The notes under the pieces are model-generated. The model worked only from the letters and a program-made list of their open reading frames with translations. It was not told the origin of the DNA and did not search any database. Of a DNA stretch of 38,395 bases, positions 18,923-34,538 are shown one piece after another. Every line of letters begins with the position of its first letter. Position 1 is the stretch's first letter. The position numbers and the translations under genes were made by a program. The DNA is from Candidatus Kerfeldbacteria bacterium CG_4_10_14_0_8_um_filter_42_10 (GTDB taxonomy: Bacteria; Patescibacteriota; Patescibacteriia; UM-FILTER-42-10), in contig PFMD01000028.1 of NCBI GenBank assembly GCA_002784945.1, positions 1 to 38,395 of the forward strand, read 5' to 3'.

Positions 18923-18977
18923 TATCTATAAGAAACTATGATGACTGGTTGTAAATCCACAGCAAATTGCCATTTTA

Positions 18978-19077
18978 TCCCCACACCCTTCCGAATACCC
19001 TGTCCCGTTAAGCGGGAACGAAAGGATCATATTAAGCCTTTCCTTTGGAACTAATACCCCACCAGAAGGTGTGGGGA
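18978..19077. mobile_element. 100-bp MITE-like element at the typA stop codon
   Basis: TIRs TCCCCACACC / GGTGTGGGGA; TTTA on both flanks (18974-18977 and 19078-19081). Confidence 0.65.
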
Positions 19078-19078
19078 T

Positions 19079-20872
19079 TTATTCATCCTGGCGTTTGTGC
19101 CGGGTTCTTTCGAGAGCGGATAAATATTTTTTGCACAACCTAATGCTCTTGGGCGTAACTTCTAGATATTCATCATCATGTATAATGCTTAAAGCGCTTT
19201 CTAGGGTCAGCTCTACGGGAGCGGTCAGCCTAATGGCATCATCGGAACCAGAAGCTCGCATATTGGTTAAGTTCTTACCTTTGATCGGATTCACCACTAA
19301 ATCATTGCCTTTGGCCACATTACCAATAACCATGCCTTCGTAAACCGCGACGTTGGCTCCCAGATAAAGCGTGCCCCTCTCTTCCAGATTAGCCAGGGAA
19401 TAAGCGGAGGTCTTGCCGTTAAAGCCGGAAACCATGGAACCTAATTCGCTTTTTTCTATGGCGCCGGCATAGGGTTTAAAACCTAAAACATGCGTGCATA
19501 AAATGCCCTCGCCCCGGGTATCCACCACGAATTCATTGCGGTAGCCTAAAAGACCTCTGGTGGGAATTTCAAAAATCAAGCGGGTCGTACCCTGGTGGGC
19601 TTTGATGCTTAAAAGCTGGCCGCGGCGTTTGGATATTTTTTCAATAACCACGCCGGAATTTTTTTCCGGCACATCAATGGTTAATTCTTCAAAAGGTTCC
19701 AGCTTAACGCCGTTTTCTTCTTTGATGATTACTTGGGGCTGGGAAACTTGCAGTTCATAGCCTTCGCGCCTGATATTTTCCAGTAAAATGGCGATATGCA
19801 ATTCGCCCCGGCCACAGACTTTATAATAGGCCGTTTCGGAAAAATCGATTTTCAAGCCGACATTGACCTCTAATTCCTTGCGCAGGCGCTCCTTAAGCTG
19901 GCTATTGGTCACGAATTTGCCTTCTTTTCCGGCAAAAGGAGAATTGTTCACCAAAAAATTCAAAGAGATGGTCGGTTCATCAATGCTAATGGCCGGCAGC
20001 GGAGCTTGGCTTTCGTTCTCGGCAATGGTTTCGCCAATATCAATATCGGGCATGCCCGCAATCATCACAATGTCTCCGGCCGAAACTTCGGATACTTCCT
20101 TGCGCTCTAATCCATGAAAAGTGAATAGCTTGGTGATTTTACCCCGGCGCGGCTCAAGGCCTTTAGAACTGAGCACTCGGACTTCTTGAGCGGATTTGAC
20201 CTTTCCGGAATAAACGCGGCAAATGGCCAAACGCCCTAAAAAATTATCATAAGCCAAATTAAAAGGCTGGGCGGCAAACAATTCGGAGGCTGACTCCTCG
20301 GGCACGGCCGGCACATGTTTCAAAATAAGATCCAAAAGCGGATTTAAATCGGCCGATTCGTCTTCCAGATTCATTTTAGCCAGACCTAATTTGGAAGCGG
20401 CGTAAATTACCGGAAAATCCAATTGCTCGTCGCTGGCTCCCAAATCCAAAAATAATTCGTAAACCATTTCCGCCACTTCTTCAGGGCGTGCCGCCGGCTT
20501 GTCAATTTTATTGATTACCGCAATCGGTTTCAAGCCCAGTTCCAGCGACTTCTTTAAAACAAACTTGGTCTGGGGCATAGGGCCTTCTTGGGCATCCACC
20601 AAAAGTAAAACGCAGTCAATGGAACGCAAAATGCGCTCCACTTCGGAACTGAAATCGGCATGGCCGGGAGTATCCACGATATTAATCTTGGTGCCATTAT
20701 AAAACACTGAGGTGTTTTTCGAATAAATCGTAATGCCCCTTTCCTTTTCCAGGGTGTTGCTGTCCATGGTAACAGTACCGTCAGTCATGCCGGTCTGTTT
20801 CATTAAAGCGTCCGTTAAAGTTGTTTTGCCATGATCGACATGCGCGATAATGGCGATATTTCTTATTTCCAT
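19079..20872 (-). CDS. typA: translational GTPase TypA/BipA
   Basis: IRNIAIIAHVDHGKTTL, ERGITI, DTPGHADF, NKID, GRGELH, KNLTNMRASGSD. Confidence 0.97.
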   Translation of the reverse strand: MEIRNIAIIAHVDHGKTTLTDALMKQTGMTDGTVTMDSNTLEKERGITIYSKNTSVFYNGTKINIVDTPGHADFSSEVERILRSIDCVLLLVDAQEGPMPQTKFVLKKSLELGLKPIAVINKIDKPAARPEEVAEMVYELFLDLGASDEQLDFPVIYAASKLGLAKMNLEDESADLNPLLDLILKHVPAVPEESASELFAAQPFNLAYDNFLGRLAICRVYSGKVKSAQEVRVLSSKGLEPRRGKITKLFTFHGLERKEVSEVSAGDIVMIAGMPDIDIGETIAENESQAPLPAISIDEPTISLNFLVNNSPFAGKEGKFVTNSQLKERLRKELEVNVGLKIDFSETAYYKVCGRGELHIAILLENIRREGYELQVSQPQVIIKEENGVKLEPFEELTIDVPEKNSGVVIEKISKRRGQLLSIKAHQGTTRLIFEIPTRGLLGYRNEFVVDTRGEGILCTHVLGFKPYAGAIEKSELGSMVSGFNGKTSAYSLANLEERGTLYLGANVAVYEGMVIGNVAKGNDLVVNPIKGKNLTNMRASGSDDAIRLTAPVELTLESALSIIHDDEYLEVTPKSIRLCKKYLSALERTRHKRQDE

Positions 20873-20976
20873 AATTATTCGCTATTTAAAAAAATTACCG
20901 TCTCTTGTAATTTTTCAAACAAGTATGATACATCATTATAATTTAATTTTTATTTTTAATCAAGTATTGATGGTAT

Positions 20977-21015
20977 AAAAAAAGCCCGATGGTATCGATA
21001 CATCAACCAGCGGGC
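20977..21015 (-). terminator. terminator of pepT
   Basis: GCCCG.TGGT...ACCA.CGGGC stem with a 7-nt U tract on the minus strand. Confidence 0.55.
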
Positions 21016-21067
21016 GGGTAATCCAGATAAATTTGAAAGACTCTTTTTGTAAGGAGCATGCTGATGT

Positions 21068-22315
21068 TCAGCGCGTCATTTGCGCGTAGCTGGTGATCGC
21101 GTCGAGAAGGACAGTTACGGTCGTTTCCATCTCCTCCTGGATCAGGTGCTCGTGCACGCCGTGTATGCGTCGGCTGCCGTAACCCAGGTTCGGCGATGGA
21201 ATATCCGAATAAGCCATGCCGAACATGGCGCCGTCGGTTCCGGCGCGGACGCGGTGTTCCCGGGGAGTGAGCCCGTTTTTCCGAAGAGCGTTGAAAATCG
21301 GGTCGAGCATTTCCGGGTGGGCCTTGATGGCCGGTTCGATGTTGATGTACTGCACCTCCGGCTCCCCTACCGTGAACGCGACGTCGTAACGTTCGGCCGC
21401 GATCTTGGCCAGGCGGGCCACCGTACCGTGAAGCAACGAAATTTCATCCCGCTCGAAGGTGCGCGGGATCACCGTAATCTGGGCCAGGGCAGCCGTGAAA
21501 GGACGAGTCGCGGGAACGTAGAGGAACGACTGGGCGCCGCTGCTCTGAGTGGGCATGACTTCGTTACCCAGCCTGTCCACAAAGCAACTACCCGCGTAAT
21601 GGGCGCAACGCAGATGCCCGCCGTCTTCCCCGGGATGGGCATCGACGCCTTTGAATTCAACATCCACACTCACACCGATGAAACACGCGGTGTCCACGGC
21701 TTCCGGTTCCTTGCCGTCCACGGTCAGGAAGAGCTTCCACTGGTCAACCACTTCCTTGGGCAGGAATTTGACGCCGACTTCGCCGATTTCTTCGTCCACG
21801 CAGACCCAAACCCAGATGGGGCCGTGCGCCATGCCGCTAATGAGCATCTCCTCAATGGCGGTGACGGTCGCGGCCGCGCCACCTTTGTCATCCGCGCCCA
21901 AAAGCGTCGTGCCATCCGAAGTAATGATGTGCTTGCCTTCCAGACCAACGAGTTCACTGGCCGGAATAATCACGCCGTTGTTGGGCAGAACGATGTCTCC
22001 GCCCTGGTAGTGGTGAACGATGGGCTTGGCCAGTCCTTCGCAGCCGAAATAGGTATCGACATGAAAAACCAGCGCAATTCCCGGCGTATTCTCGAAACCC
22101 GGCGTGGCCGGAATCTCGATCAGCTTGGACCCGTCGCCGAGACGGACCATCTGCGTTTCCAGAATGCCCATCTGGATGAATTCCCCGGCGATTTTTTCCA
22201 CCAGCACGAGTTCATTGGGATTACTCGGGTGAGGCGGATCAACGCCGGGCGTGGGTTGCACCGATCTGGTGTCCATCTGGACGTACTCCAGAAATCGGTC
22301 GTTTACACTTCTCAT
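21068..22315 (-). CDS. pepT: peptidase T-like M20B metallopeptidase
   Basis: RFLEYVQMDTRS, HVDT, SDGTTLLGADDKGG, DEEIG, RAGTDG, IHG; visibly higher GC than its neighbours. Confidence 0.85.
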   Translation of the reverse strand: MRSVNDRFLEYVQMDTRSVQPTPGVDPPHPSNPNELVLVEKIAGEFIQMGILETQMVRLGDGSKLIEIPATPGFENTPGIALVFHVDTYFGCEGLAKPIVHHYQGGDIVLPNNGVIIPASELVGLEGKHIITSDGTTLLGADDKGGAAATVTAIEEMLISGMAHGPIWVWVCVDEEIGEVGVKFLPKEVVDQWKLFLTVDGKEPEAVDTACFIGVSVDVEFKGVDAHPGEDGGHLRCAHYAGSCFVDRLGNEVMPTQSSGAQSFLYVPATRPFTAALAQITVIPRTFERDEISLLHGTVARLAKIAAERYDVAFTVGEPEVQYINIEPAIKAHPEMLDPIFNALRKNGLTPREHRVRAGTDGAMFGMAYSDIPSPNLGYGSRRIHGVHEHLIQEEMETTVTVLLDAITSYAQMTR

Positions 22316-22427
22316 CTGGACAACTCCAATGGTATGAACATCCTTGAGCTTCTTTATCTCAAGGTTTGTGGCCTTATCTAAACATAATGATGAAAAACGG
22401 TCAATATTATTTAGAAACAGTTTACCA

Positions 22428-22457
22428 TTGACAATAAATCATTTTTTCGACTATACT
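22428..22457 (+). promoter_or_regulatory. sigma70-type promoter of the DEAD-box gene
   Basis: TTGACA-18-TATACT. Confidence 0.65.
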
Positions 22458-22497
22458 TGATGCTTATTAATAACGGATAACCAATCCAACCAATCAC

Positions 22498-23784
22498 ATG
22501 ACTTTATTAACCAACGAAAACCAGAGTTTTGACGGCCTAGGGATAGCGCCGAAAATTTTGGAAATACTGGATAACCTAAAATTCATCACCCCGACCCCCA
22601 TCCAGCGCCAATCCATTCCGGCGGCCTGCGAAGGCAAAGATATTATGGGCGTAGCCCAGACCGGCACCGGCAAGACGCTGGCCTTTGGCATTCCCATGAT
22701 TCAGCGGCTGGCTCAAATGAAGGGCTCAAAAGGACTGGTTATTCTACCCACTCGTGAACTGGCCATTCAGGTTAATGAGAGCTTACTGCAAATCGGCAAA
22801 AGCATCGGATTAAAAACCGCCATTCTAATCGGCGGCGAATCACCCAACCGGCAATTGCAGGCCTTAAGAAAAAACCCTCACGTTATTATTGCCACTCCCG
22901 GTCGGTTAAACGATCATCTGGAGCAAAAAAATATTAAGCTTGATCAGGTTAAAATTTTAGTGCTGGATGAAGCCGACCGCATGCTGGATATGGGTTTTGT
23001 TCCGCAGATTAACCGGATCGTCCAGCACGTGCCCCGCAACCGTCAAACCATGCTGTTCTCGGCCACCATGCCAAAGGAAATAATCAGTTTAGCCACCAGT
23101 TACATGAAGCTTCCGATTCGGGTAGAGGTGGCGCCTTCCGGCACGATTTCGCAAAAAGTCACCCAGGAACTATTTTTTGTCGGCAACAGCTCTAAATTGC
23201 CGCTGTTGGAAAAAGTTTTGAGCGAGTACCGCGGCAGCGTTTTAATCTTCAGCCGAACCAAATTTTCCGCCAAAAAAATCGCCCGCTCCCTAAGGAACGT
23301 CGGGCACAGCGCCACGGAAATTCATTCTAACCGCTCGCTTAACCAGCGGATCGAAGCCATGTCCGGCTTTAAGCTGGGCAAATACCGCATTATGGTCGCT
23401 ACGGATATTGCCTCGCGCGGCATTGATGTGGCGGGCATTGAACTGGTAATCAACTACGATTTGCCAAAAAATCCCGAAGATTACGTGCATCGCATCGGAA
23501 GGACCGCCCGCGCCGGCCACCAGGGACACGCCATCTCTTTTGCCACTCCGGACCAATCAAAAGACGTCCGAAACATTGAAAAACTGATTAAGACCCAGCT
23601 GTTAGTTTCGCCTTTGCCGAAACTGGCGGCAAAACAGGCTGCGCCAAACCAAGAAAGGCCTTTCCGGGAATTCCAGCCGTCGGCCAAACACAGACCTTCA
23701 CGCCGTTTTAATGACGGATACTCATCGCGAGAGGGTTCAAAAAAATTCTTCCAAAGAAAGCCGAGAAAATATAAAAGATTTTAA
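22498..23784 (+). CDS. DEAD-box RNA helicase (RhlE-like)
   Basis: Q motif, AQTGTGKT, PTRELA, TPGR, DEAD, SAT, HRIGRTAR; basic C-terminal tail. Confidence 0.96.
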   Translation: MTLLTNENQSFDGLGIAPKILEILDNLKFITPTPIQRQSIPAACEGKDIMGVAQTGTGKTLAFGIPMIQRLAQMKGSKGLVILPTRELAIQVNESLLQIGKSIGLKTAILIGGESPNRQLQALRKNPHVIIATPGRLNDHLEQKNIKLDQVKILVLDEADRMLDMGFVPQINRIVQHVPRNRQTMLFSATMPKEIISLATSYMKLPIRVEVAPSGTISQKVTQELFFVGNSSKLPLLEKVLSEYRGSVLIFSRTKFSAKKIARSLRNVGHSATEIHSNRSLNQRIEAMSGFKLGKYRIMVATDIASRGIDVAGIELVINYDLPKNPEDYVHRIGRTARAGHQGHAISFATPDQSKDVRNIEKLIKTQLLVSPLPKLAAKQAAPNQERPFREFQPSAKHRPSRRFNDGYSSREGSKKFFQRKPRKYKRF

Positions 23785-23806
23785 AAACCGGTAAAATCAA
23801 TCAGCC

Positions 23807-23833
23807 AAAAAACCGCCTTTCAGCGGTTTTTTT
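23807..23833. terminator. bidirectional intrinsic terminator
   Basis: AAAAAACCGC-CTTTCA-GCGGTTTTTTT between convergent genes. Confidence 0.8.
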
Positions 23834-23865
23834 AATAAATCGAAATCCTGTTTGAATCAGTCTCG

Positions 23866-24453
23866 CTATTTTTTCGCTTTTTTGGCCGACGTTTTTTTAA
23901 CCGAAGGTTTTTTAGCCGTTTTTCCGTTGGCGGCAGATTTACCCTTGGCGGATTTTTCTATTTTTTTAACCGCTTTTGGCGCAGCTTCTTTTGGCGCCGA
24001 CTTTTTTTCCGAAGCCGGGACCAGCACTTTTAGAATTTGATCTAGTTTGCTGTTCAGAATGTCGAACTGTTTACTGGACTGTTCGCCGCCACCGCCCCTA
24101 TTTTTTTTACCGCCTTTTTTTTCAAAACAATCATTGCAGTAAACCGGTTTTCCTGCAGTAGGTTTAAAAGGAACCTCACAGGCCTTGCCGCAGATGTCGC
24201 AGGTTGCGGCGAACATTCTTTTTTCTTCAAAGCTGGGCCTGCGGTAATCTTCCTTTCGACCCCTTTTATTTTCAAAACAGCTGCTGCAGTATACCGGTTT
24301 ATCCCCACTGGGTTTAAAAGGAACTTCGCATTCTTTGCCACATTCCGCGCAAGTTGCTTGGTACATCTGTCTGTCATTATCTCTGCCCCCAAAACCCCGC
24401 GTGTTAAAACCTCCTCCTCTGCTTAATTTGCCACCTCGATTGAAATTTTTCAT
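23866..24453 (-). CDS. CxxC-x17-CxxC domain protein (two zinc ribbons, Lys-rich tail)
   Basis: ATCAECGKECEVPFKP...PVYCSSCF present twice; minus-strand promoter TTGATT-17-TACTAT upstream. Confidence 0.92.
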   Translation of the reverse strand: MKNFNRGGKLSRGGGFNTRGFGGRDNDRQMYQATCAECGKECEVPFKPSGDKPVYCSSCFENKRGRKEDYRRPSFEEKRMFAATCDICGKACEVPFKPTAGKPVYCNDCFEKKGGKKNRGGGGEQSSKQFDILNSKLDQILKVLVPASEKKSAPKEAAPKAVKKIEKSAKGKSAANGKTAKKPSVKKTSAKKAKK

Positions 24454-24759
24454 GGTTTATTATCGTTAGTAAATGAATTTTGACACTTGTATAGTACTTC
24501 TTCCTCGCTTAAAAATCAATTACTTTATGCTGGCGCTAGGAATGATTTGCACGGAGCGGGTAATGGGCTAAGGAATGAAATGTGGGGATCAGGGTTTCAA
24601 GACACACTCCTTTTTCCCATTCCGAAACGCACTGCGCACTCCCACTTTCCTTTTTGTAAATTCCAAACCCTGCTTCTTTAGACTTTCCTATTAGAAGAAT
24701 AAACCCTCCCCGAGGTGCTCTTTACTTGTTAAAAAATAATCCTGGATTTATTCCAGGTT

Positions 24760-24945
24760 TTACCATTCCGTATCCTTTTTCCGATTGGCTTTTTGGGCTG
24801 ATATTCTTGCTTTAAACATCTTATCACCGATCGAAGCCGAGTCTAATACTCCGATGGCGGCCATGATCGCCTCTTTTTCTTCTTGAGAAAAAGAATGCTT
24901 TTCCATTGCCTTCGATAAAATCTCGATGGCTCTTTTGTATTCCAT
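24760..24945 (-). CDS. small hypothetical protein
   Basis: 61-aa helical-looking ORF with host-like composition, downstream of the tRNA. Confidence 0.6.
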   Translation of the reverse strand: MEYKRAIEILSKAMEKHSFSQEEKEAIMAAIGVLDSASIGDKMFKARISAQKANRKKDTEW

Positions 24946-25035
24946 TTTTCGTCTGTTAAAAACGATGTACGATTAATAATCCGAGCAATGGCTTCAATCG
25001 CCGCCGCTTTCAAAAATTCGCGAGATATTACTGTA

Positions 25036-25109
25036 TGGCTGGGGAGGTAGGATTCGAACCTACGATCATGGAGCCAGAATCCATTGCCTTGCCGCTTGGC
25101 TACTCCCCA
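25036..25109 (-). tRNA. tRNA-Gln(CTG)
   Basis: 74-nt cloverleaf TGGGGAG...CTCCCCA-G-CCA; anticodon arm ATGGA-TTCTGGC-TCCAT; TTCGAAT loop; U1-A72 pair. Confidence 0.96.
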
Positions 25110-25167
25110 ATATCTAAACCTTACAATTACCAGTTTTAATTTTCAATTACTAATTACTAATTACCAG

Positions 25168-26763: not shown

Positions 26764-26872
26764 ATTTTTGGTTAGTAAACTAATCCTAGTTTAGCCTTTA
26801 TTTGAATCTTCTGCAATCCTGATTTAGCGTAATAAAAAAACCCGGTTAAGGATTATTTGCCTAATTAATTAG

Positions 26873-26969
26873 AAATTGTTTTATTGTTATATTGTTAAAT
26901 TGTTGGAAAATACCAGTAAAAAACAATAAAACAATTTAAAACCTAATAAGCTAAAAAGCTACAAGCTAA
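26873..26969. repeat. inverted octamer array plus TAGCT array
   Basis: (NNATTGTT)n...(AACAATNN)n then CTAATAAGCTAAAAAGCTACAAGCTAA. Confidence 0.75.
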
Positions 26970-26981
26970 TCTCCTAACTTC

Positions 26982-27665
26982 CTAAATCCCAATATCCTCC
27001 AGTTTTTCCTTTTCCTTATCTTCTTCTCTGCTAGGTTCCAGTTTTTCCTCTTTTTTCTCCAGATTATCTTCGAGCTGTTCCAATTCTGTAACTATCACCG
27101 ACTCTGCTCTATTTTCAATCGCTCCTCCGCCTTTGACCACATTCTCTACGGCCGCCCAGTTAGACTGCTTATCCTTGGGGACTAAAATGACCACTTCATC
27201 TCCGGCTTCTCCTTTAAAATAAGTAATGCTGGCTAAAAGCACCTTATAGCCCTTCCCGCTGGCGACTACTCGATATTCGCCGGTTTGCTCGTCTTGGATC
27301 AGGCTTCCGATCAGGCGCCGTCGTTCTACCGGACCGATTTGTTTATAAACAAAAGAACCATCGTCAGAAATGGTTAATTTCAGCACATCACCCTCTACTA
27401 ATTTAGATTTAGAGGCGTAATTTGCCGGTACGTTGTATTGTTTTTCATCCGGGCCCACCATATTCAGCCCGTCAAATATTCCTTCTATTATTCTTCCGCC
27501 CCCCGCCACCTTTCCTACTATTTTTGCTTTGGAGGCCGGTGCGTCATTGACTTCAAAAAGATCGGCTCCTGCCGCTTCGCTTAACATCTGCTTGGCGGAA
27601 CGGATGGCTTCTTCAGCCGAATCGATCATTTGTTTTATTTGCTCTAATTTATTTTCGTCGATCAT
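26982..27665 (-). CDS. conserved hypothetical protein
   Basis: 227-aa ORF; N-terminal helix, VPANYASKSKLVEGD..KQIGP core that I recall from CPR genomes, acidic tail. Confidence 0.8.
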   Translation of the reverse strand: MIDENKLEQIKQMIDSAEEAIRSAKQMLSEAAGADLFEVNDAPASKAKIVGKVAGGGRIIEGIFDGLNMVGPDEKQYNVPANYASKSKLVEGDVLKLTISDDGSFVYKQIGPVERRRLIGSLIQDEQTGEYRVVASGKGYKVLLASITYFKGEAGDEVVILVPKDKQSNWAAVENVVKGGGAIENRAESVIVTELEQLEDNLEKKEEKLEPSREEDKEKEKLEDIGI

Positions 27666-27860
27666 TTTTATTTTCCTCCCAGAATTTTATTATTTGTTAT
27701 ATTTTGATATTTTTTTGTTTTAATTTGTTTTTTATTTTATATTATTTCCGAACTGTTTTATTTTTATTGTGAATCTATTTTATCATACCTTAAAAATTAG
27801 TCAAAGAAAATTAAAAAGGCCCGCTGCGACAGGCTCGAAAAATGGCTCAATTTAGCCGTT

Positions 27861-28409
27861 TTAAAAACGGTAGCAATAGATCGAATTACTGGTTTCGGTC
27901 GGTTTACTAACCACGGCCGGTGTAAAAGCTTTTATCGGAAAAACATACGAGACAATTCGGCTATCCTTTTTCATTTCTTTTTTGAATTTTGATTCCAGTT
28001 TTTTTAGGCCATACGGGGTAAGGAAAAAAACAATAACATTCGCCTGACTGAAATCAGCTCGAAAAAAATCTTTGTATAAAATTTTTACTCGTCCCTTCAG
28101 CCTATGAACAAAAAAATTGTTCAAGAAGAAAAGTCTTATTCTAGAAACCAAATAAGGAATAAACGAGATTTCATATCCGATAAACTGAGCATCATAGCGT
28201 TTAGCCAGTTCCAGGGTCACTCGACCGTCGCCGGAACCCAATTCATATACTACTTCGTCTTTTTTTATTCCGGCCAGTTCTGTAATTCTCAGCAAATCTT
28301 TTTTTCGCGCCGGAACCCAAGGAGCGGCCCGATAGCTGGCCAAGGCCATGGTGCCAAATACCAGTAAGATTAACAAAAGTAAGCCAAAATGAAAAAATAG
28401 TTCAGACAT
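27861..28409 (-). CDS. class I SAM-dependent methyltransferase with N-terminal TM helix (FAM173-like)
   Basis: TM helix then APWVP, ELGSGDGR, GYEIS. Confidence 0.85.
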   Translation of the reverse strand: MSELFFHFGLLLLILLVFGTMALASYRAAPWVPARKKDLLRITELAGIKKDEVVYELGSGDGRVTLELAKRYDAQFIGYEISFIPYLVSRIRLFFLNNFFVHRLKGRVKILYKDFFRADFSQANVIVFFLTPYGLKKLESKFKKEMKKDSRIVSYVFPIKAFTPAVVSKPTETSNSIYCYRF

Positions 28410-28411
28410 TC

Positions 28412-28497
28412 CTATTGCTTTATTGTTATATTGCTAAATTGTTTTATTGTTTCTAAAAAATAACAATTCAACAATTTAGCAATATAACAATTTAACT
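28412..28497. repeat. inverted octamer array
   Basis: TATTGCTT TATTGTTA TATTGCTA AATTGTTT TATTGTT followed by AACAATTC AACAATTT AGCAATAT AACAATTT. Confidence 0.8.
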
Positions 28498-28523
28498 ATG
28501 CGACAGTTAAAATAACGATCGAG

Positions 28524-31055
28524 CTAAATTTTAATTTCCGTTGTTTCTTTCTTTTTAGATCGCTCTAAGATTTCCGATTCAATAATGTTTCTTTCCCTTC
28601 CGTATTTCAATCGGGAGAGTTCTTTAATCGCCGGCACCATTTCGGGATTGCCTTTAGGCAGAGTTCTTCCCTTTACGTTAAAGGGCCGCGCATGGCTGTT
28701 ATCGATCAAAAGCTTCAGATTAAAGGTATATTTGTCGACATTCATAACGTCATATTCATTGAATACCGGATCGAACTGCTTAGCAAAAAGCTCGGCGTCC
28801 TCCACTCCGACCCGATAAGCCGCAATGGTCCCCACATTGCCGAAAACAGCGTCTTTAATGCTGGTATCGGTACCCTGGACCAGCTGCCCGACATATTGAT
28901 GCGCCATGGTCAGGGAAAGCTTGTATTTACGGGCTTCCGAAAGGATTACCGCAATGCTTTCCGTAACATAGTTTTGGAACTCATCGATGTAAAGATAGAA
29001 CGGTTTGCGCTGTGATTCAGGGAGATCGACCCGGCTTAAAGCGGCCATCAAAATCTTTCCCACTATTACCAGCCCCAGAAGTTCCGCGTTTAAGTCTCCG
29101 ATCCTTCCTTTCGACAGATTGATCAATAAAATCTTGCCTTGATCCATTGCTTCCCTAAAGTTGAATCCGCTTTTCTGCTGGGCAATAATCGGGCGCATAT
29201 AGTCATTGGAGATAAAGGTGTTCAATTTGCTGGTGATGTAAGGAACCATATTGGCCAACGCCGCTTCACCGCCCGCTTTTTCTGCTTCTTCTTCCCAAAA
29301 TCTCTTTACCACAATGTTAGTGGTTTTAGTAAGTTTGTATTTTCGGTATTCCTTGTCGGCAAGGACGCGGGGAATTTCCAACAAGGTGGCACCGCTTTCC
29401 GGATCATCCATCACCAAAAGCATGGCATTGCGCATGTACTGTTCAAACATCGGGCCGCCGGTTTGAGCCAGATTATACAACTTGTCAAAAATCTTGATCA
29501 TCTCGTTAATCACAAAAGTTTTCTGTTCCGGGTATTTGGGATCATACTCCATCAAATTCAGCCCAATGGGTCTTTGCAAATCCGCCGGATCAAAATAAAT
29601 TACGTCTTCGGCCCTACTTTTAGGAACATTAGGCAAAACATATTCATCAATCAATCCGCCATGCGGATCGATTAGGCAGCAGCCGTCGCCATTCTGAATA
29701 TCCTGAACGGCCATGTTCGCCATGGTATAAGATTTTCCTGAACCCGTTTGTCCAATTATATAGATGTGTCTTTCCCGATCGTCTTTTTTGATTCGTACTT
29801 CCGTTTTTTGGCCGCGGTATTCGCATTCACCCAAAATCACTCCGGTTTTAGGTAAATTGTTTGGCGGGGGCGCTTTTTTGGCGCCGAGCCAGCGAATGTT
29901 GGGAGTTTCGGTGTAAGGCAGCGGCAAATGGTAAAGGCTGACCACTTCTTCGGTGTTTAAAATGAATGCGCGCTTTTCGTTAAAATTGCGATAAATAAAA
30001 TCATGAATCAAACGGGGATTATTGCCCACTTGCACCGCGTTAAAACCATTGCCGTATTCGTAGCCGGAATATTGGGAAAAGGAATCAATGATATTTCTAA
30101 GATATGCTTGCGCCTGATCTTTTCGTTTGGCCGAGACCACGATCCGGATATTCACATCGAATCCGGCCTTGCTGGTTTTTTCTTCCAGGGATTTTACGAT
30201 CTCTTCTTCCATGGGTGAAAGCTGATGCAGCTGCTGTTTTTGAAGCAGGTCGTCTTCTTTGGATTTATGAATAAAGAACATTTTAAACATTCCGCTTAAA
30301 AATCCGAGAAAACCGCGGCCGCCCGCCGCATTCAGTGCTTCTTGCAACTTTTTACCCTGTTGCATTTCGGAAGCGACTTTGGCCGGCCAAGCATGCCACG
30401 AGGCTCTGGCCGAGCGAAGAATGATTTGAATCGCTCCGCCTTCATCCGTTTGGAATTTAGAAAGCGAATTGGTAATGGCGTTCAACGGATCGGATTCCAA
30501 TTTTTGGTAAGTTCGAATTGGGAAAATATATTTTTTCTTGAGTCTCAGGTAGGCCGCCTGAATTATCCCTTGGGGCGTGAAAATATTGTAATCTTCCACC
30601 GGATCAATTTGCGCTTCAGGATAATGGGCGTGCAGCTGCTGTTCTAAGAAGCGCCGGAAATACTTGGGGCAGGTAACGTAAAAGGAAATCGCATTATCTT
30701 TTTCCTTAACTATTTCCAAGGCGAAGTGGTCTTGACGGCCATATAAAAAAGTCCGTAGTCCGCTTTGGGGTTTTAGGCCTCCCAAATTAGCGTATAAGTT
30801 TTCCGCCATGCCGATTAACTGTTTAAGCTCTTTTTCTTTATCCTCTTCTCTGGAAAATTCTTTCGGCACCATCACCAATAAAGTAACGTTATGAAACTCC
30901 TCTGGCAAATTATACTGCTTTCTTAAAATTTTCCTCACAATAAAAATTACGGCGGCAACTGCGAAAACGATTGCCGCAAAAATAATCAATCCGATCACTA
31001 CCGGATTAGAAAAAATTGATTCTCCCGTAACGGGATTAGGCAAAGTATTCGACAT
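28524..31055 (-). CDS. VirD4/TrwB-like (HerA/FtsK superfamily) ATPase with N-terminal TM anchor and long N-terminal domain
   Basis: RHIYIIGQTGSGKS Walker A, IDPHG, LYIDEFQ Walker B, SEARKY, AHQ, GNVGT. Confidence 0.88.
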   Translation of the reverse strand: MSNTLPNPVTGESIFSNPVVIGLIIFAAIVFAVAAVIFIVRKILRKQYNLPEEFHNVTLLVMVPKEFSREEDKEKELKQLIGMAENLYANLGGLKPQSGLRTFLYGRQDHFALEIVKEKDNAISFYVTCPKYFRRFLEQQLHAHYPEAQIDPVEDYNIFTPQGIIQAAYLRLKKKYIFPIRTYQKLESDPLNAITNSLSKFQTDEGGAIQIILRSARASWHAWPAKVASEMQQGKKLQEALNAAGGRGFLGFLSGMFKMFFIHKSKEDDLLQKQQLHQLSPMEEEIVKSLEEKTSKAGFDVNIRIVVSAKRKDQAQAYLRNIIDSFSQYSGYEYGNGFNAVQVGNNPRLIHDFIYRNFNEKRAFILNTEEVVSLYHLPLPYTETPNIRWLGAKKAPPPNNLPKTGVILGECEYRGQKTEVRIKKDDRERHIYIIGQTGSGKSYTMANMAVQDIQNGDGCCLIDPHGGLIDEYVLPNVPKSRAEDVIYFDPADLQRPIGLNLMEYDPKYPEQKTFVINEMIKIFDKLYNLAQTGGPMFEQYMRNAMLLVMDDPESGATLLEIPRVLADKEYRKYKLTKTTNIVVKRFWEEEAEKAGGEAALANMVPYITSKLNTFISNDYMRPIIAQQKSGFNFREAMDQGKILLINLSKGRIGDLNAELLGLVIVGKILMAALSRVDLPESQRKPFYLYIDEFQNYVTESIAVILSEARKYKLSLTMAHQYVGQLVQGTDTSIKDAVFGNVGTIAAYRVGVEDAELFAKQFDPVFNEYDVMNVDKYTFNLKLLIDNSHARPFNVKGRTLPKGNPEMVPAIKELSRLKYGRERNIIESEILERSKKKETTEIKI

Positions 31056-31057
31056 TC

Positions 31058-31549
31058 TTACTCTCCTTTTTTCTTTTTGATTATCTCCAAAATCCGATCA
31101 GTCTTGATTTTGGTTTCTTGCTCTAAAAAGAATTTGTTTACTCCGGGAATCAATTTCAGCCAGTCGCCAATAAGCTGAATTACCTTTTTAGCCGTAGCTT
31201 TGGCGGTTTGGATTAGATTCTCAATCAGCGTAGCGGTTTCTTCGCCCTTTTGCCGAAAAAGAAGCTTCTGATTGGCATCCATGCTTTGATAAATATCAAC
31301 TAAATCCTCCGAGAGGATTTTTTCGATTTCCCTTCTAGTTTCGGACTTGGGAACAGCTATTGGGGTAGGAGTTGTGGCGGCGGGAACCGGTTGAGCCGAG
31401 GCCGCTTTTTGTTCTTCCTTAGCTATCTGTTTTTCCAGCTCGGCTAGATCCTTTTCCAATTCCACTTTTTTTTCGTCAGTTTCGGGAATAATTGGTCTTT
31501 CCGGAATAATTTCAGGCTTAGGCTGCTGTTCAAATTGTTGTTCAGGCAT
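31058..31549 (-). CDS. conserved hypothetical protein co-transcribed with the ATPase
   Basis: 163 aa; low-complexity N-terminus; IPGVNKFFLEQE..IK core; 2 nt from the ATPase start. Confidence 0.8.
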   Translation of the reverse strand: MPEQQFEQQPKPEIIPERPIIPETDEKKVELEKDLAELEKQIAKEEQKAASAQPVPAATTPTPIAVPKSETRREIEKILSEDLVDIYQSMDANQKLLFRQKGEETATLIENLIQTAKATAKKVIQLIGDWLKLIPGVNKFFLEQETKIKTDRILEIIKKKKGE

Positions 31550-31710
31550 GATAAAAAATTAAAGCTCAAAGCGAAAAAAATTGAGATAATCTGCCGTTCT
31601 AATCTTTAAATTTAAACTTTTAACTCTAAACTTTGCACTTTTATAGTATATCATATTTTCCCGTTTTTTTCAACTTATTTCCTAAAATACCCCCTACCTA
31701 CTTAGTGGGA

Positions 31711-31739
31711 TTGACAAAAATTGAGATTAGGTATATATT
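31711..31739 (+). promoter_or_regulatory. sigma70-type promoter
   Basis: TTGACA-17-TATATT. Confidence 0.7.
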
Positions 31740-31783
31740 TATCTGTTAAAATTAAGCTGCTAAGTACCAAGTACTAAGAAGGA

Positions 31784-31904
31784 AAAAGCGACAGATATTT
31801 GCCGTCTCTTGATAGCAGACCCCGCTAGAAATCGGGTAGCGGAAAAAAGCCTGTTGGGATGAATACAACGGTGTTTTCTAAAGGGGTAAATATGTGTCAC
31901 TTTT
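31784..31904 (+). promoter_or_regulatory. candidate structured 5' leader (four-way junction)
   Basis: 20-bp closing stem (2 mismatches) enclosing three hairpins, between the promoter and the lipoprotein ATG. Confidence 0.5.
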
Positions 31905-31966
31905 AATGGGAAGATCATTCGAAAAAAAATAGACCAAAAATAGACCTCTGAAAGGGGGAAAGTAGC

Positions 31967-32908
31967 ATGAGAAGCTGGATTCTTCTGCCTCTGCTGGCAA
32001 GCGTCTTACTGCTGGCCGGTTGCGGAGCGCACAGTCACTTGGAGCGGATTGATCATAATACCTGGAATTTCCACTGGGAAGCCTACCGGATCGCCGATCC
32101 GCAAATCCTGGTAGACGTTTATCGCGCCCAGGAAAACATCACGGAAGAGGATTGGATGTTGTTCGACAACACCGCCTATTTCACGGTAATTCCAGGACAC
32201 CCGAAATTTGACGGCAACGTCACTTCAGTAAAGGTGTATCTGGACAATAACGGACCGGTTTTCGCCGCTAAAGGAGGTGCGGGATACCAATTTGGTATCA
32301 CCACTGCTTGGAGCGTAGGCGAAAATTTGTTCTACAACGTTATGCCCGGCAAACACACCGTGGTGGTTCAAGTCGAATGGCAGTCCTGGAAACCGTTCTG
32401 GTTTAAAGGACAACAAACCCGAGACCTGACCACCTGGACCTACGCCATCATTGACGTAGACCAATCGTATCTGGCCCGAATGGATACCGATCCCGGGCTG
32501 TTCCGTGCCGCTAAAAAGGATGAGCCGCAATTGCTGGTTACTTACCTGGGCCGGCTGATTAACGTTACGGAGAAAAAGCGAACTATGTTCGAAAACTCCG
32601 AGACGTACCTGGTAGCGGTTGGGAATGACGACGATGGATACGTCAAGGACGTCATCGTATATCTCAACAATGTCCGGATTCCGGTTCACAAAGAAGGCGT
32701 CCATTATACCTTCGGCGTGACTACCGGGTATGGCAGCGGCGGCAACTACTATTACAACATCGGTTCCGGTAATTACAAGTTCCGGATCGAAGTAGTAAAG
32801 GTCAAACCGCCGAAGCCGGTGGCCCAGCCGCCTGGACCAGATGGAGAGGTCTATTCGCAGTTCGTACATTCCGAACTTGAGGTGGATCCGACCTATTTAG
32901 GTTGGTGA
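31967..32908 (+). CDS. lipoprotein with two internally repeated beta-rich (Ig-like) domains
   Basis: LAGC lipobox; DG.V..V.VYL.N...Y.FG.TT...N..YN..G repeated twice. Confidence 0.8.
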   Translation: MRSWILLPLLASVLLLAGCGAHSHLERIDHNTWNFHWEAYRIADPQILVDVYRAQENITEEDWMLFDNTAYFTVIPGHPKFDGNVTSVKVYLDNNGPVFAAKGGAGYQFGITTAWSVGENLFYNVMPGKHTVVVQVEWQSWKPFWFKGQQTRDLTTWTYAIIDVDQSYLARMDTDPGLFRAAKKDEPQLLVTYLGRLINVTEKKRTMFENSETYLVAVGNDDDGYVKDVIVYLNNVRIPVHKEGVHYTFGVTTGYGSGGNYYYNIGSGNYKFRIEVVKVKPPKPVAQPPGPDGEVYSQFVHSELEVDPTYLGW

Positions 32909-32924
32909 TCTGCTTCGCTTACCA

Positions 32925-32973
32925 AGAGGGCGTGCATCTCTATAATCTATAAATAGAGATGCCCGCCTTTTTT
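32925..32973 (+). terminator. intrinsic terminator
   Basis: GGCG.GCATCTCTAT...ATAGAGATGC.CGCC followed by T tract. Confidence 0.75.
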
Positions 32974-32999
32974 CTTTATGGGATATCGCGCCTTCTGCC

Positions 33000-33031
33000 G
33001 GGTAGGCGGAGCGACGTCGCTCCGCCTACCC
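33000..33031. repeat. perfect 32-bp palindrome with GTAG/CTAC near the ends (REP-like)
   Basis: GGGTAGGCGGAGCGAC|GTCGCTCCGCCTACCC. Confidence 0.92.
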
Positions 33032-33107
33032 TTTATTACTTTTGACAGAATTGAATTATTGCGGTAGTTTAAATATAAGATTAGATCTTTTTCCTGGGAG
33101 GCGGCCC

Positions 33108-33278
33108 ATGTCAACAACAGGCTTGATAGTACTGGGGGTTATTTTCGCAGCACTTATCGCGGTGGCGCTCTGGGCGATCAAAAAACTCCCTAAGACAGAG
33201 GAGATGACTTCTGAGGACAGAGAAATCTGGGTCCAGGCTATGATGGTAGATCCGTTCCTCAACTATCCTGTACTCTGA
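33108..33278 (+). CDS. 56-aa single-TM small protein
   Basis: TTGACA-17-TAGTTT promoter (33042-33070), GGGAGG SD, N-terminal TM helix, terminator at about 33302-33329. Confidence 0.65.
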   Translation: MSTTGLIVLGVIFAALIAVALWAIKKLPKTEEMTSEDREIWVQAMMVDPFLNYPVL

Positions 33279-33346
33279 TTATCTCTAAGGTTCTTCATGT
33301 CAGGCAGTTGCCCGCGCGACTGCCTTTTTCTTTATCAAATAATGAC

Positions 33347-33375
33347 TTGCAAAAAATCGTAAAGTGTGCTACAAT
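33347..33375 (+). promoter_or_regulatory. corA promoter
   Basis: TTGCAA-17-TACAAT with TG extension. Confidence 0.7.
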
Positions 33376-33413
33376 ATAACCATAAAGTGCTAAAACAAAC
33401 ACAAAAAAATGAA

Positions 33414-33612
33414 TCCCGTTAGAAAAAACAAATTTTGGTTTACCTATAATATCCAACGCTTAGAAAATAAACACCGGCATACCGATTGCACTGCTTATTT
33501 ACGGAAGCGCTCTACGGAAAACAATCATTATTTTTCAATTTTCAGCAAAGGTCGAGAACTATTTTTTATTTATTTTGAAGCGTGTTTAAAGCGCTTCTTT
33601 TTTCTAACGGGA
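33414..33612. mobile_element. 199-bp MITE-like element inserted in the corA start codon
   Basis: 15-bp perfect TIRs TCCCGTTAGAAAAAA / TTTTTTCTAACGGGA; TGAA on both flanks (33410-33413 and 33613-33616). Confidence 0.8.
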
Positions 33613-34538
33613 TGAACATCCAGGAAATTAAATCCAAGGATATGAGTTGGGTTAACATTATTAACCCCACTCAAGAAGAGATTGAACATCTCCGAAAAAC
33701 TTATAAATTCCACCCGCTGGATTTAGAAGATTGTTTAACGGTAACCCAGCGACCTAAGATTGATGAATACGAGAAGTATCATTTTATGGTGCTTCTTTTT
33801 CCGATTTACCACACGAAAACCCGTGAAATTACTCCCGAAGAAATCCATTTTTTTATCAGCAAGCACTACCTGATTACTATTCATAACAATGTGCTTTCGC
33901 CCGTCACCAATTTTTTTCACCTCTGCCAAAGCAGCCAAGAGGTACGAAAAAAGCATTTCGATGGCTCCGCCGAAAAACTACTGTATCACGTTTTAGATAA
34001 ACTGCTTACCTCTATTTACCCGATGCTGGATCATCTTAGCGTTGACATCAGCCAGGTGGAAAAAGGGATTTTTGCCGGTGACGAAAAAAAGATGGTTAAA
34101 GAAATTCTGGTAACCCGCCGGAATATCACCGACTTTCGCAAAATTATGCAGGCTCACAAAAAGACTTTGCAAAAGTTAACGGCCGGCCTGCAGGAAAGCG
34201 ACTTATTTCAAATCCAAAAAACTGACCGCTATTTCGACAACTTAGTGGATCACACTAAGGAGATTTGGGATGCCCTCGAAGGATACAAAGAAGCCATCGA
34301 AGCATTGCAGGAAACCAATGAATCGCTGATTTCTAATCGCATTAATGAAATAATGAAAACATTAACGGCTATTTCCGTGGCTATTCTGCCAGTAACATTG
34401 ATTGCCAGCCTGTTTGGCATGAACACTCCCAATTCTCCCTTTAGCAATCAGCCTCATGCCTTTTGGATAATAACCGCCATGAACTTATTGATAATGGCCG
34501 GCTTGATATTTTTCCTTAAAAAGAAAAGATGGATTTAA
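33612..34538 (+). CDS. corA: CorA family Mg/Co transporter
   Basis: HPLDLED, QRPKIDEY, NEIMKTLT, FGMN signature, two C-terminal TM helices. Confidence 0.93.
   Translation: MNIQEIKSKDMSWVNIINPTQEEIEHLRKTYKFHPLDLEDCLTVTQRPKIDEYEKYHFMVLLFPIYHTKTREITPEEIHFFISKHYLITIHNNVLSPVTNFFHLCQSSQEVRKKHFDGSAEKLLYHVLDKLLTSIYPMLDHLSVDISQVEKGIFAGDEKKMVKEILVTRRNITDFRKIMQAHKKTLQKLTAGLQESDLFQIQKTDRYFDNLVDHTKEIWDALEGYKEAIEALQETNESLISNRINEIMKTLTAISVAILPVTLIASLFGMNTPNSPFSNQPHAFWIITAMNLLIMAGLIFFLKKKRWI

Follow-up and report, generated by a model that had tools for sequence, protein, structure and literature searches.

Two short inverted-repeat elements lie directly on gene boundaries in contig PFMD01000028.1 of Candidatus Kerfeldbacteria bacterium CG_4_10_14_0_8_um_filter_42_10, one of them on the stop codon of typA and the other on the start codon of corA. 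The locus raises the question of what such elements are, how they move and why they sit on the borders of genes. The window analyzed here is the whole contig of 38,395 nucleotides, which is contig C48 of assembly GCA_002784945.1 (G000: 1.36 Mb, 83 contigs, 42% G+C, rated 98.5% complete; related genomes measure 0.7-1.4 Mb). A first-pass annotation, made from the letters of the window, had described the two elements, here termed e1 and e2, as non-autonomous miniatures with common TCCC/GGGA ends and a duplicated T(A/G)AA. We propose, with a probability of about 75%, that e1 and e2 are members of a Patescibacteria superfamily of very small hairpin-ended mobile elements that is tied to a cassette encoding a GIY-YIG nuclease.

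The features at the two sites are as follows.

33414-33612, plus strand: e2, 199 bp, with TCCCGTTAGAA ends; TCCCGTTAGAAAAAACAA forms the arm at 33414-33431, and the complement of this sequence the arm at 33595-33612.
33410-33413, plus strand: left TGAA flank of e2, which with the preceding A33409 is the original ATGAA start of corA.
33613-33616, plus strand: right TGAA flank of e2; A33612 and TG rebuild the corA ATG, and TGA at 33613-33615 ends the relic open reading frame (ORF).
33409-33615, plus strand: relic nuclease ORF in e2, 68 codons, which opens at the ATG of the left flank, closes at the TGA of the right flank and overlaps with the corA start by ATGA.
33612-34538, plus strand: corA magnesium transporter gene, host of e2, 308 aa, intact (Pfam CorA, E 8.7e-63).
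33347-33375, plus strand: predicted promoter-like arrangement (TTGCAA, 17 nt, TACAAT) upstream of the corA leader.
18978-19077, no strand assigned: e1, a hairpin element without a gene, 100 bp, with TCCCCACACC...GGTGTGGGGA ends.
18974-18977, minus strand: distal 4-nt flank of e1, TTTA, equal to TAAA on the minus strand, read directly.
19078-19081, minus strand: proximal 4-nt flank of e1, TTTA, equal to TAAA on the minus strand; the typA stop codon TAA is 19081-19079.
19079-20872, minus strand: typA/bipA GTPase gene, host of e1, 597 aa, intact.

Direct reading confirmed the extents of both elements. The statement that the host genes remain intact was also correct, as Pfam recognizes a complete TypA/BipA protein (GTP_EFTU, E 6.5e-54; BipA_C, E 2.2e-39) and a complete CorA; the CorA orthologues in the related genomes G002-G005 align from residue 1 with 61-64% identity. 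The arms of e2 are 18-19 nt long and 95% complementary, and those of e1 are TCCCCACACC(C)TTC and GAAGGTGTGGGGA, in which 10 bases pair perfectly and 12 with one mismatch. Folded as single-stranded DNA, e1 forms a stem that is closed by its arms, with -20.1 kcal/mol compared to -11.5 +/- 2.3 for shuffled sequences (z -3.7). An Rfam search at gathering score over the whole window returned tRNA-Gln only, and e1 and e2 match no curated RNA family.

Both elements belong to families that are spread over the genome. When TCCC...GGGA inverted repeats of at least 11 nt, lying 40-450 bp apart, were counted, G000 yielded 61 pairs and the reversed genome, which served as control, 5. The sequence TRAATCCCGTTAGAA occurs 24 times in G000, while its backwards control is absent there and appears once in total across the 31 genomes searched. 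The paired form TCCCCACACY...RGTGTGGGGA is present at 11 places, each on both strands, again with no match of the backwards control. Four arm types were recorded in G000.

Arm type TCCCGTTAGA (e2 type): 29 entries, 27 of them non-nested.
Arm type TCCCCACAC (e1 type): 12 entries.
Arm type TCCCGCAC: 4 entries, two around a tRNA gene, one around a GIY-YIG ORF and one a bare 44-bp hairpin.
Arm type TCCCACACC: 3 entries, one of them beside a conserved GAGGAAAGTCCG stretch.

Thus, where the first-pass annotation knew two examples, 27 non-nested e2-type elements and 12 e1-type elements, including e1 itself, are available for comparison. The 4-nt flanks are identical in 25 of the 27 non-nested e2-type copies (TGAA 13, TAAA 10, TGAG 1, TCAA 1) and differ by one base in the remaining two, and hence flank duplication is not a peculiarity of the window. 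The e1-type copies are more diverse, with direct repeats in only two of the 12 (e1 and C38:8192-8294) and other flanks in four. The shared architecture of TCCC/GGGA ends and T(A/G)AA duplication therefore applies to the e2 family and to a small sub-family of the e1 type, for both of which empty sites in G001 show the direct repeat to be a true insertion footprint, but not to the main TCCCCACACC family.

Almost all of G001, a genome of the same genus, was compared with G000 for filled and empty sites. By protein comparison, eight of nine host genes start without an element in G001, where the orthologues align from residue 1 (77-85% identity) and open with ATGAA in five cases, ATGGA in two and ATGCA in one; the start of a glycosyltransferase gene carries an element in both genomes. 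The site on C57 is empty in G001 by DNA synteny, which brings the empty alleles to nine out of ten assessable gene starts. The following sites were read letter by letter.

Empty site C27 28861: G001 ..TTGTTCATATG.. (TTGTTCATAT); G000 ..TTGTTCA[96 bp]TTCATAT..
Empty site C75 12277: G001 ..AGATTTACTTAATT..; G000 ..AGATTTA[105 bp]TTTACTTAATT..
Empty site C47 7673: G001 one TTCA; G000 TTCA[118 bp]TTCA[second element]TTCA.

One exact empty site reads AAGTAAATCT in G001 and AAGTAAA[105 bp]TAAATCT in G000. Since G001 is devoid of the element plus exactly one copy of the flank, the elements are insertions, and the comparison of filled with empty sites indicates that each event adds the element and 4 nt equal to the target word. 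The elements of G001 itself are flanked by TGAA, TAAA, TCAA, CAAA, TGAG or TGGG, equal on both sides. On C47 and C57, two elements stand in tandem at a single site, both sites being empty in G001, which suggests that a filled site stays a preferred target. A filled and empty pair is present even within G000, where the cassette at the end of C4 and the copy on C51 are identical except for a 45-bp hairpin and a TGGG duplication. The contigs C44, C51 and C4 break inside near-identical cassettes, and two of these adjoin the ATG of a host gene.

For e1, the closest comparison is its sister copy C38:8192-8294, which has the same TTTA/TTTA flanks, lies on the stop codon of a 1456-codon ORF and is absent from the corresponding site in G001. 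TypA was not found in the fetched parts of G001 or by genome search, and e1 itself is thus without an empty site from the same genus. In G002-G005, the stop codons of the four typA orthologues are not followed by an element of this kind, in a comparison that is not base by base, as the C-terminal tail of typA differs in these genomes.

Which enzyme goes with these ends is indicated by longer copies that have the same ends and encode a GIY-YIG nuclease only. The GIY-YIG family PF01541 exceeds its cut-off at 12 places in G000; the matches include ten short frames of 74-183 aa that are open or interrupted by a single stop (48.9-63.9 bits), as well as a 602-aa frame that we take to be UvrC. The cassette on C75 scores 54.8 bits, and the copy at C75:65659-65935 is 277 bp long, has TGAG flanks and reads MSPVRENKAWYTYLIQS..WYTGCTIDLRKRFKEHN. 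An alignment of 14 intact nuclease relatives with proteins of 83-94 aa (A2) contains the invariant columns Y13, L31, R34, Y56 and E58 and 11 more that are nearly invariant, including Y24, G26, H38 and E70. The intact cassette proteins consist of a single GIY-YIG domain in which the catalytic residues Tyr, Tyr and Glu are present. Their nearest solved structure by sequence is 1ZG2, the UPF0213 protein BH0048 (E 1.9e-8), and an NCBIfam scan of an intact nuclease gave no family.

Single-domain GIY-YIG nucleases that are specific for single-stranded DNA have been described as the Ssn family (Chenal et al., Nat Commun 2025, PMC11893778). The hairpin bound by these enzymes is NTS/dRS3 (core TCCCGCG..GCGGGA), cleavage takes place a few bases 5' of it, and the SsnA mutants Y6A, Y17A and E64A lose cleavage (PMC11893778). 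The motif tyrosines and the cofactor glutamate of SsnA appear to correspond by position to Y13, Y24 and E70 in our alignment.

The relic ORF of e2 matches the GIY-YIG copy on C75 in the genome search (E 4.2e-13, 47% identity). Because family scans of this ORF gave no such match (Pfam only I-TevI_ZnF with E 0.1, NCBIfam none), its homology to the nuclease is derived from the genome search and from the alignments A1 and A2. According to these alignments, e2 keeps Y13 and is about 25 residues shorter, with D65, R69, E70, K74 and R85 among the missing positions; at nearly invariant columns of A2, Y24 is replaced by H, G26 by D and H38 by N. In terms of motifs, the gap covers the conserved Glu of REK, and the Tyr and Gly of YIG as well as the His of EHN are lost. 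With Y24, G26, H38 and E70 lost, e2 does not encode a single-domain GIY-YIG protein with its catalytic residues, and since Y24 and E70 are gone, the e2 nuclease should be inactive. By sequence comparison, e2 is a decayed copy of a nuclease cassette of about 280 bp, the frame of which is still open. The description as a non-autonomous miniature consequently suits the gene-less e1, but not e2, which descends from an autonomous cassette.

The arms and the gene form one unit. In the e2 lineage the arms are even coding, as AATCCCGTTAGA provides N-P-V-R at the N-terminus and TTCTAACGGGA TGA provides (F)-L-T-G-stop at the C-terminus. The gene is enclosed by arms at the C75 and C58 cassettes in G000 and in 70 of 80 public loci, and what lies between such arms in G000 is a GIY-YIG ORF, a tRNA or no gene, and nothing else. 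The public loci are the best 80 of more than 304 relatives that were retrieved with one intact nuclease, and they are not phylogenetically independent; the cassettes with both arms located are mostly 273-284 bp long. The more than 304 relatives, at 62-78% identity, are mostly labelled Patescibacteria and also come from Omnitrophota, Planctomycetota, Elusimicrobiota, Desulfobacterota and a Woesearchaeote; the near-identical units in different phyla indicate that arm, gene and arm travel together. Within the class, 122 of 151 genomes have nuclease homologues, with up to 12 matches per genome. The arm type also tracks the nuclease sub-family: CCCGTTAGA goes with ..KSGMGKRY.. proteins and CCCCACACC with ..LKLRSRAF.. 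proteins, and both of these stretches lie outside the part that is encoded by the arms. Other genomes of the class also have GIY-YIG cassettes of full length whose ends are of the CCCCACACC type. We read e1 as a gene-less miniature of a sister lineage with TCCCCACACC ends, inserted at a TAAA in which the TypA stop happens to lie.

These observations bear on two other explanations. The first-pass annotation had compared the ends with those of piggyBac, IS1380 and IS982, which would make the elements miniatures of a DDE insertion sequence whose parent is located elsewhere or has been lost. Terminal inverted repeats and a 4-bp direct repeat agree with such an origin, and CCC/GGG ends together with a TTAA-like target recall piggyBac. 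However, the only DDE_Tnp_1 gene of G000 has unrelated ends, the arms studied here enclose just a GIY-YIG ORF, a tRNA or nothing, and the public loci with both arms show them around the nuclease gene alone (70 of 80). The piggyBac family PF13843 had no match in G000, but was silent in the control genomes too. With a GIY-YIG nuclease as partner, the analogy was abandoned, and we regard a DDE parent as very improbable. The same holds for the idea that the cassette is a free-standing homing endonuclease gene, which would cut both strands of the empty allele and be copied by repair from the filled one, with its hairpin ends being incidental. GIY-YIG nucleases are classic homing enzymes, and the same corA site is filled in two genera. 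Yet homing leaves no target duplication and needs homologous flanks, whereas the present elements insert at unrelated genes, come with a 4-nt duplication and include gene-less miniatures that multiply, and the protein of 83-94 aa is without a DNA-binding domain beside the catalytic one.

Other cargo was seen between arms of the TCCCGCAC type. They surround a tRNA-Arg(TCG) gene at C6:8042-8144 and, at C58:25810-26128, a GIY-YIG cassette of 319 bp that ends with GGGA/TGAA on the ATG of a 406-codon ORF, and therefore such arms can carry different cargo. Outside the window at C23:190-450, a tRNA-Ala(CGC) gene (248-323) lies inside a TCCCGCAC...GTGCGGGA hairpin (233-334) that interrupts an apparent second tRNA, whose 5' half ends with ..GCGGCATTCG and whose 3' half reads CCGAGACCCGGGTTCAATTCCCGG..CCA. 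These halves are followed by a further tRNA-like piece, the third, and by an outer stem that is GC-rich; the only calls made by ARAGORN were the inner tRNA and a weak tRNA-Thr. Small GIY-YIG genes between or beside tRNA genes also occur without TCCC-type arms, namely at C55:22240-22837, C27:15482-15700, C76:4123-4335 and C58:1673-1885. A 106-bp hairpin of the TCCCACACC type at C42:146-251 lies directly 5' of the conserved GAGGAAAGTCCGAACAC stretch, which is presumably RNase P RNA, as is GAGGAAAGTCCG. The matching place in G001 (C34, about 18295-18519) has a different, longer GC-rich hairpin, and full GIY-YIG cassettes occupy it in two other genomes of the class (L039 and L040).

Why the elements are found on start codons was assessed after the pre-insertion sequence had been rebuilt by script, with start-like sites defined as ATGAA that opens at least 100 codons and has a stop within 25 codons upstream. 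The layout of e2, in which ATGAA precedes and TGAA follows the element, was found at 13 sites in G000. Nine of the 13 TGAA-flanked copies sit on start-like ATGAA, and a tenth on a GTGAA that opens 407 codons; the exceptions are a C4 copy three codons before a stop and the copies at C27 18545 and on C64, which have short frames. Only 357 of all 4185 ATGAA sites in G000 (8.5%) are start-like (p about 1e-7). A stricter null model counts the sites at which insertion is tolerable, i.e. those that are start-like or that fall outside the genes of a crude ORF-based model; 36% of these are start-like, which gives p 0.016 for 9/13 and p 0.003 for 10/13. The doubt raised at first, that two examples cannot separate targeting from survival bias, is thereby partly removed. 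In G001, five of the six elements with TGAA on both sides are located on starts, and the CCCC..GGGG variants of this genome rebuild GTG instead of ATG. The public genomes provide the strongest evidence. Of their TCCC..GGGA cassettes, 35 of 41 restore an ATG whose frame is open for at least 90 codons or to the edge of the locus, and 30 show identical flanks and a left ATG, while only two of 29 cassettes with CCCC..GGGG or other ends are on starts. These numbers indicate that the terminal T...A pair goes with life on start codons. The proposal that the terminal A of an element and the following TGAA rebuild an ATG thus applies far beyond corA, and the occurrence on start codons is a real feature that is tied to the terminal A. 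Stop codons are a different matter, as four of the 12-14 TAAA-flanked copies lie on stops of ORFs with at least 60 codons against 18% expected among tolerable TAAA sites (p 0.17-0.25), and the suggested stop-codon targeting is not supported. The position of e1 on the TypA stop is consistent with TAAA as a target word and with a harmless location.

The corA site itself has a longer history. The start of corA carries an element of 78-82 bp in G002, G003 and G005 and a mere right-arm remnant in G004, i.e. four of the five genomes with an orthologue (G000, G002, G003 and G005) have an element at this place, and cttgccaaaa..gtgtgctacaatata, a block that lies upstream of corA, is conserved in G002-G005. 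No similarity was found between the interior of e2 and the corA-site elements of the sister genus, a result that agrees equally with independent insertion, replacement and decay. No RNA run was listed as carrying the sequence. Both e1 and e2 are unchanged in contigs from four other groundwater DNA runs, and a weak check for excision showed no sign of it among the 15 joints listed of 49 in other DNA runs, none of which skips e1 or e2.

As to how a gene behind such an element is read, e2 is the only copy in which the upstream frame remains open as far as the ATGA overlap; in 15 other copies this frame stops 44-328 nt before the rebuilt start, after 6-19 codons in 14 copies and after 71 codons in the C75 cassette. 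This early stop rules out translational coupling as a general rule. Coupling in the case of e2, re-initiation and bridging via the folded stem are possible ways in which a host gene may be read. At start-like ATG sites of G000 in general, a GGAG, GAGG or AGGA word is present 3-16 nt upstream in 14%, and a TANNNT box at the spacing of leaderless transcripts in about 22%, both being loose motifs. Shine-Dalgarno words are not depleted at the hit genes (0/11 compared to 14% genome-wide, p 0.38), and a -10-like box at leaderless spacing occurs in 6/11 of them compared to 22.5% (p 0.02), which is only a hint, considering how loose the motif is.

The persistence at corA and the open frame of e2 lead to the question whether the two elements of the window are still mobile at all. 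The host could have retained them as RNA or DNA hairpins that act, for example, in the initiation of corA translation or at the 3' end of the typA transcript, and the nuclease could have been domesticated, as has been proposed for NTS-SsnA in Neisseria. The corA start is occupied in G000, G002, G003 and G005 by elements with nearly invariant arms and a diverged interior, the e2 ORF is open over 68 codons despite its dead nuclease (a chance of about 1-2% by a hand estimate with about 6% stop codons), and neither element has changed in the four other DNA runs. On the other hand, the sister species has no element at most of the sites, the left half of the corA-site element is lost in G004, where corA is still intact, and the upstream frame of the miniatures ends after 6-19 codons, so that translational coupling is not general. 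Near-identical copies, nested insertions and the spread across phyla are, moreover, marks of selfish elements. We therefore consider retention for a host function improbable.

In the explanation that we favor, the autonomous form is a cassette of about 275-285 bp with a single gene for a single-domain GIY-YIG nuclease of about 86-94 aa. In the TCCCGTTAGA lineage, this cassette brings neither its own start codon nor, if the flanks are read as a duplication, its own stop codon: the ORF begins at the ATG of the ATGAA behind which it has inserted, runs through the left arm to the right arm and is terminated by the TGA with which the second TGAA opens. Together with TG, the final A of the element restores the host ATG and creates the ATGA stop/start overlap. 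The enzyme and the chemistry of movement we infer as follows. The nuclease may recognize the folded arms on single-stranded DNA and cut beside them in T(G/A)AA, as SsnA does beside the NTS hairpin. This cut would drive the transfer of the hairpin, as a copy or by relocation, to a further T(G/A)AA, where repair or ligation by the host would finish the process. Start codons would be favored because ATGAA is the target word, because these sites are harmless and because only there a start-less nuclease gene is translated. In its boldest form, the proposal is that the cassette of about 280 bp is the smallest autonomous DNA transposon known, with a GIY-YIG protein of about 90 aa as the sole element-encoded protein needed for movement, with promoter, start and stop borrowed from the host gene and with the host ATG given back via its own last base; we put this forward tentatively, as possible rather than probable.

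The main rival mobilizers are Y1 transposases of the HUH class, enzymes whose substrates are single-stranded hairpins and whose insertions lie 3' of a fixed tetranucleotide. The elements could accordingly be REP/REPIN- or PATE-like and be moved in trans by IS200/RAYT-like enzymes, the GIY-YIG protein being a passenger or having another role. The Y1 family PF01797 has eight matches in G000 (frames of 175-216 aa with HxH and Tyr motifs; on C4, C12, C25, C32, C49, C57, C73 and C81), and Y1 genes exist in three or four of five other cassette-holding genomes. Insertion adds an element with a fixed T(G/A)AA next to the hairpin foot, which is the outcome expected of an IS200/IS605-type reaction if the two ends have the same cleavage word. 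On C57, the Y1 gene directly adjoins an e2-type element and ends in the TGAA that the element has used, and no Y1 gene lies inside arms. Seven of the eight Y1 genes, in contrast, have no TCCC-type hairpin in the adjoining 160-200 bases. The arm-bounded unit, mostly 273-284 bp and common to several phyla, holds the GIY-YIG gene only, and its arm type tracks the nuclease sub-family outside the arm-encoded stretch. In addition, G053, a genome of 100% completeness with a start-codon cassette, yielded no Y1 gene, and G122 only a sub-threshold fragment. Mobilization by Y1 enzymes is unlikely, albeit less so than a DDE parent, homing or retention by the host. By eye, hairpin-like G+C-rich stretches are present beside at least two Y1 genes (C25 and C57), and these may belong to a separate REP-like system.

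Several points weigh against a nuclease-driven mobile family. GIY-YIG enzymes hydrolyze DNA and, to our knowledge, are not known to join it, the activity of the nuclease in movement is a prediction from sequence, and the eight Y1 genes of the same genome could move the hairpins in trans. The element at the corA site is old, with conserved arms and a non-conserved interior, which could mean host function and not mobility. The excess on start codons over tolerable sites is modest and was calculated with a crude ORF-based gene model. Relative to the flank word, 16 elements have the same and seven the opposite orientation; strict orientation is rejected by these counts, and a strictly strand-specific mechanism is not favored. 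Six of the 12 e1-type copies have inverted flanks (TTTA/../TAAA), i.e. a longer palindrome without duplication, and directly repeated flanks are absent from ten of the 12 and from many public CCCC..GGGG cassettes, so that one rule does not cover all lineages. Finally, the SRM motif of the Ssn repeats (HGTCWY..RNCYNB; PMC11893778) is not enriched in G000, with five matches versus six in the reversed genome, and does not overlap with the elements, the matches all lying more than 10 nt from any of them.

Elsewhere in the window, a 1.57-kb stretch (26904-28473) is replaced by 24-38 other letters in contigs from other groundwater runs. It contains ORFs at 26982-27665 and 27861-28409, is bounded by ATTGTT-rich inverted repeats at 26853-26957 and 28419-28510, and resembles a cassette that varies between strains; its neighbor is a VirD4/TrwB-like ATPase gene (28524-31055).

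Should the nuclease be the mover of its own hairpin, these cassettes would constitute a new mechanistic class of prokaryotic transposon, very compact and with arms of 11-20 nt, in which a prokaryotic DNA element has a GIY-YIG enzyme for its transposase and selfish genes find a specific niche on the start codons of streamlined genomes. A parasite could persist in genomes with about 87% coding sequence by sitting on start codons and leaving the gene unharmed. The family would also explain many of the odd short "GIY-YIG family" ORFs and intergenic palindromes in the annotation of Patescibacteria. It raises the question of how a gene is translated when a stable hairpin of 80-280 nt separates the original initiation region from the rebuilt ATG. 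Ssn enzymes are under development as sequence-specific cutters of single-stranded DNA, and the cassettes may be a source of hundreds of natural pairs of nuclease and hairpin, each with its recognition arm encoded beside the nuclease gene.

With bacterial transposable elements of the miniature inverted-repeat type (MITEs), such as Correia/NEMIS, RUP and MITEAba12, they share small size, terminal inverted repeats, a short direct repeat, intergenic location and nested or tandem arrays. These MITEs derive from DDE insertion sequences, and we know of none that has been reported to lie precisely on start codons and rebuild them or that has a parent as small as 280 bp. The IS200/IS605-PATE and REP/REPIN-RAYT systems resemble ours in their dependence on hairpins, the insertion beside a fixed tetra- or pentanucleotide and the abundance of gene-less derivatives (for the hairpin systems, see also PMC11893778). 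They differ in that the gene inside the arms is GIY-YIG here and not HUH/Y1. The arms of our elements are terminal and pair with each other, while IS200/IS605 has two separate sub-terminal hairpins; the orientation relative to the target word is mixed here, and the added 4 nt could be the element's own end.

In the rRNA genes of the candidate phyla radiation (CPR), GIY-YIG-bearing insertions have been described that are unlike both classes of intron and do not seem to be propagated by homing (J Bacteriol 2024, PMC11270868). They share the host group and the nuclease superfamily with our cassettes, but the passages of that paper around GIY-YIG mention no inverted-repeat ends, target duplication or start codons of protein genes. 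A full-text literature search returned no description of GIY-YIG cassettes at start codons, although the supplements of PMC11893778 may list Patescibacteria homologues. The closest published relatives appear to be the Ssn nuclease/hairpin-repeat pairs (PMC11893778). The main text of that paper has no occurrence of "start codon", "Patescibacteria" or "CPR", and the 4-nt footprint, the empty sites and start-codon insertion with a rebuilt ATG are not part of it. Each Ssn flank holds a compact hairpin of 20-50 nt, whereas here the terminal arms close one long hairpin around the gene. In both systems a single-domain GIY-YIG protein of about 90 aa is encoded by a gene flanked by hairpin repeats that also occur in many gene-less copies (27 and 12 here), and both have a TCCC...GGGA palindrome core with conserved bases just 5' of it. 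At C56:23453-23496, G000 has a 44-bp TCCCGCACC hairpin, and at the same site G001 (C1, about 26849-26883) has the 16-nt palindrome TCCCGCGGACGCGGGA, which is almost the core of the Neisseria NTS/dRS3 repeat. The dRS3 repeat is ATTCCC-N8-GGGAAT, and the authors of that study state that the NTS-ssnA-NTS arrangement resembles an insertion sequence (PMC11893778).

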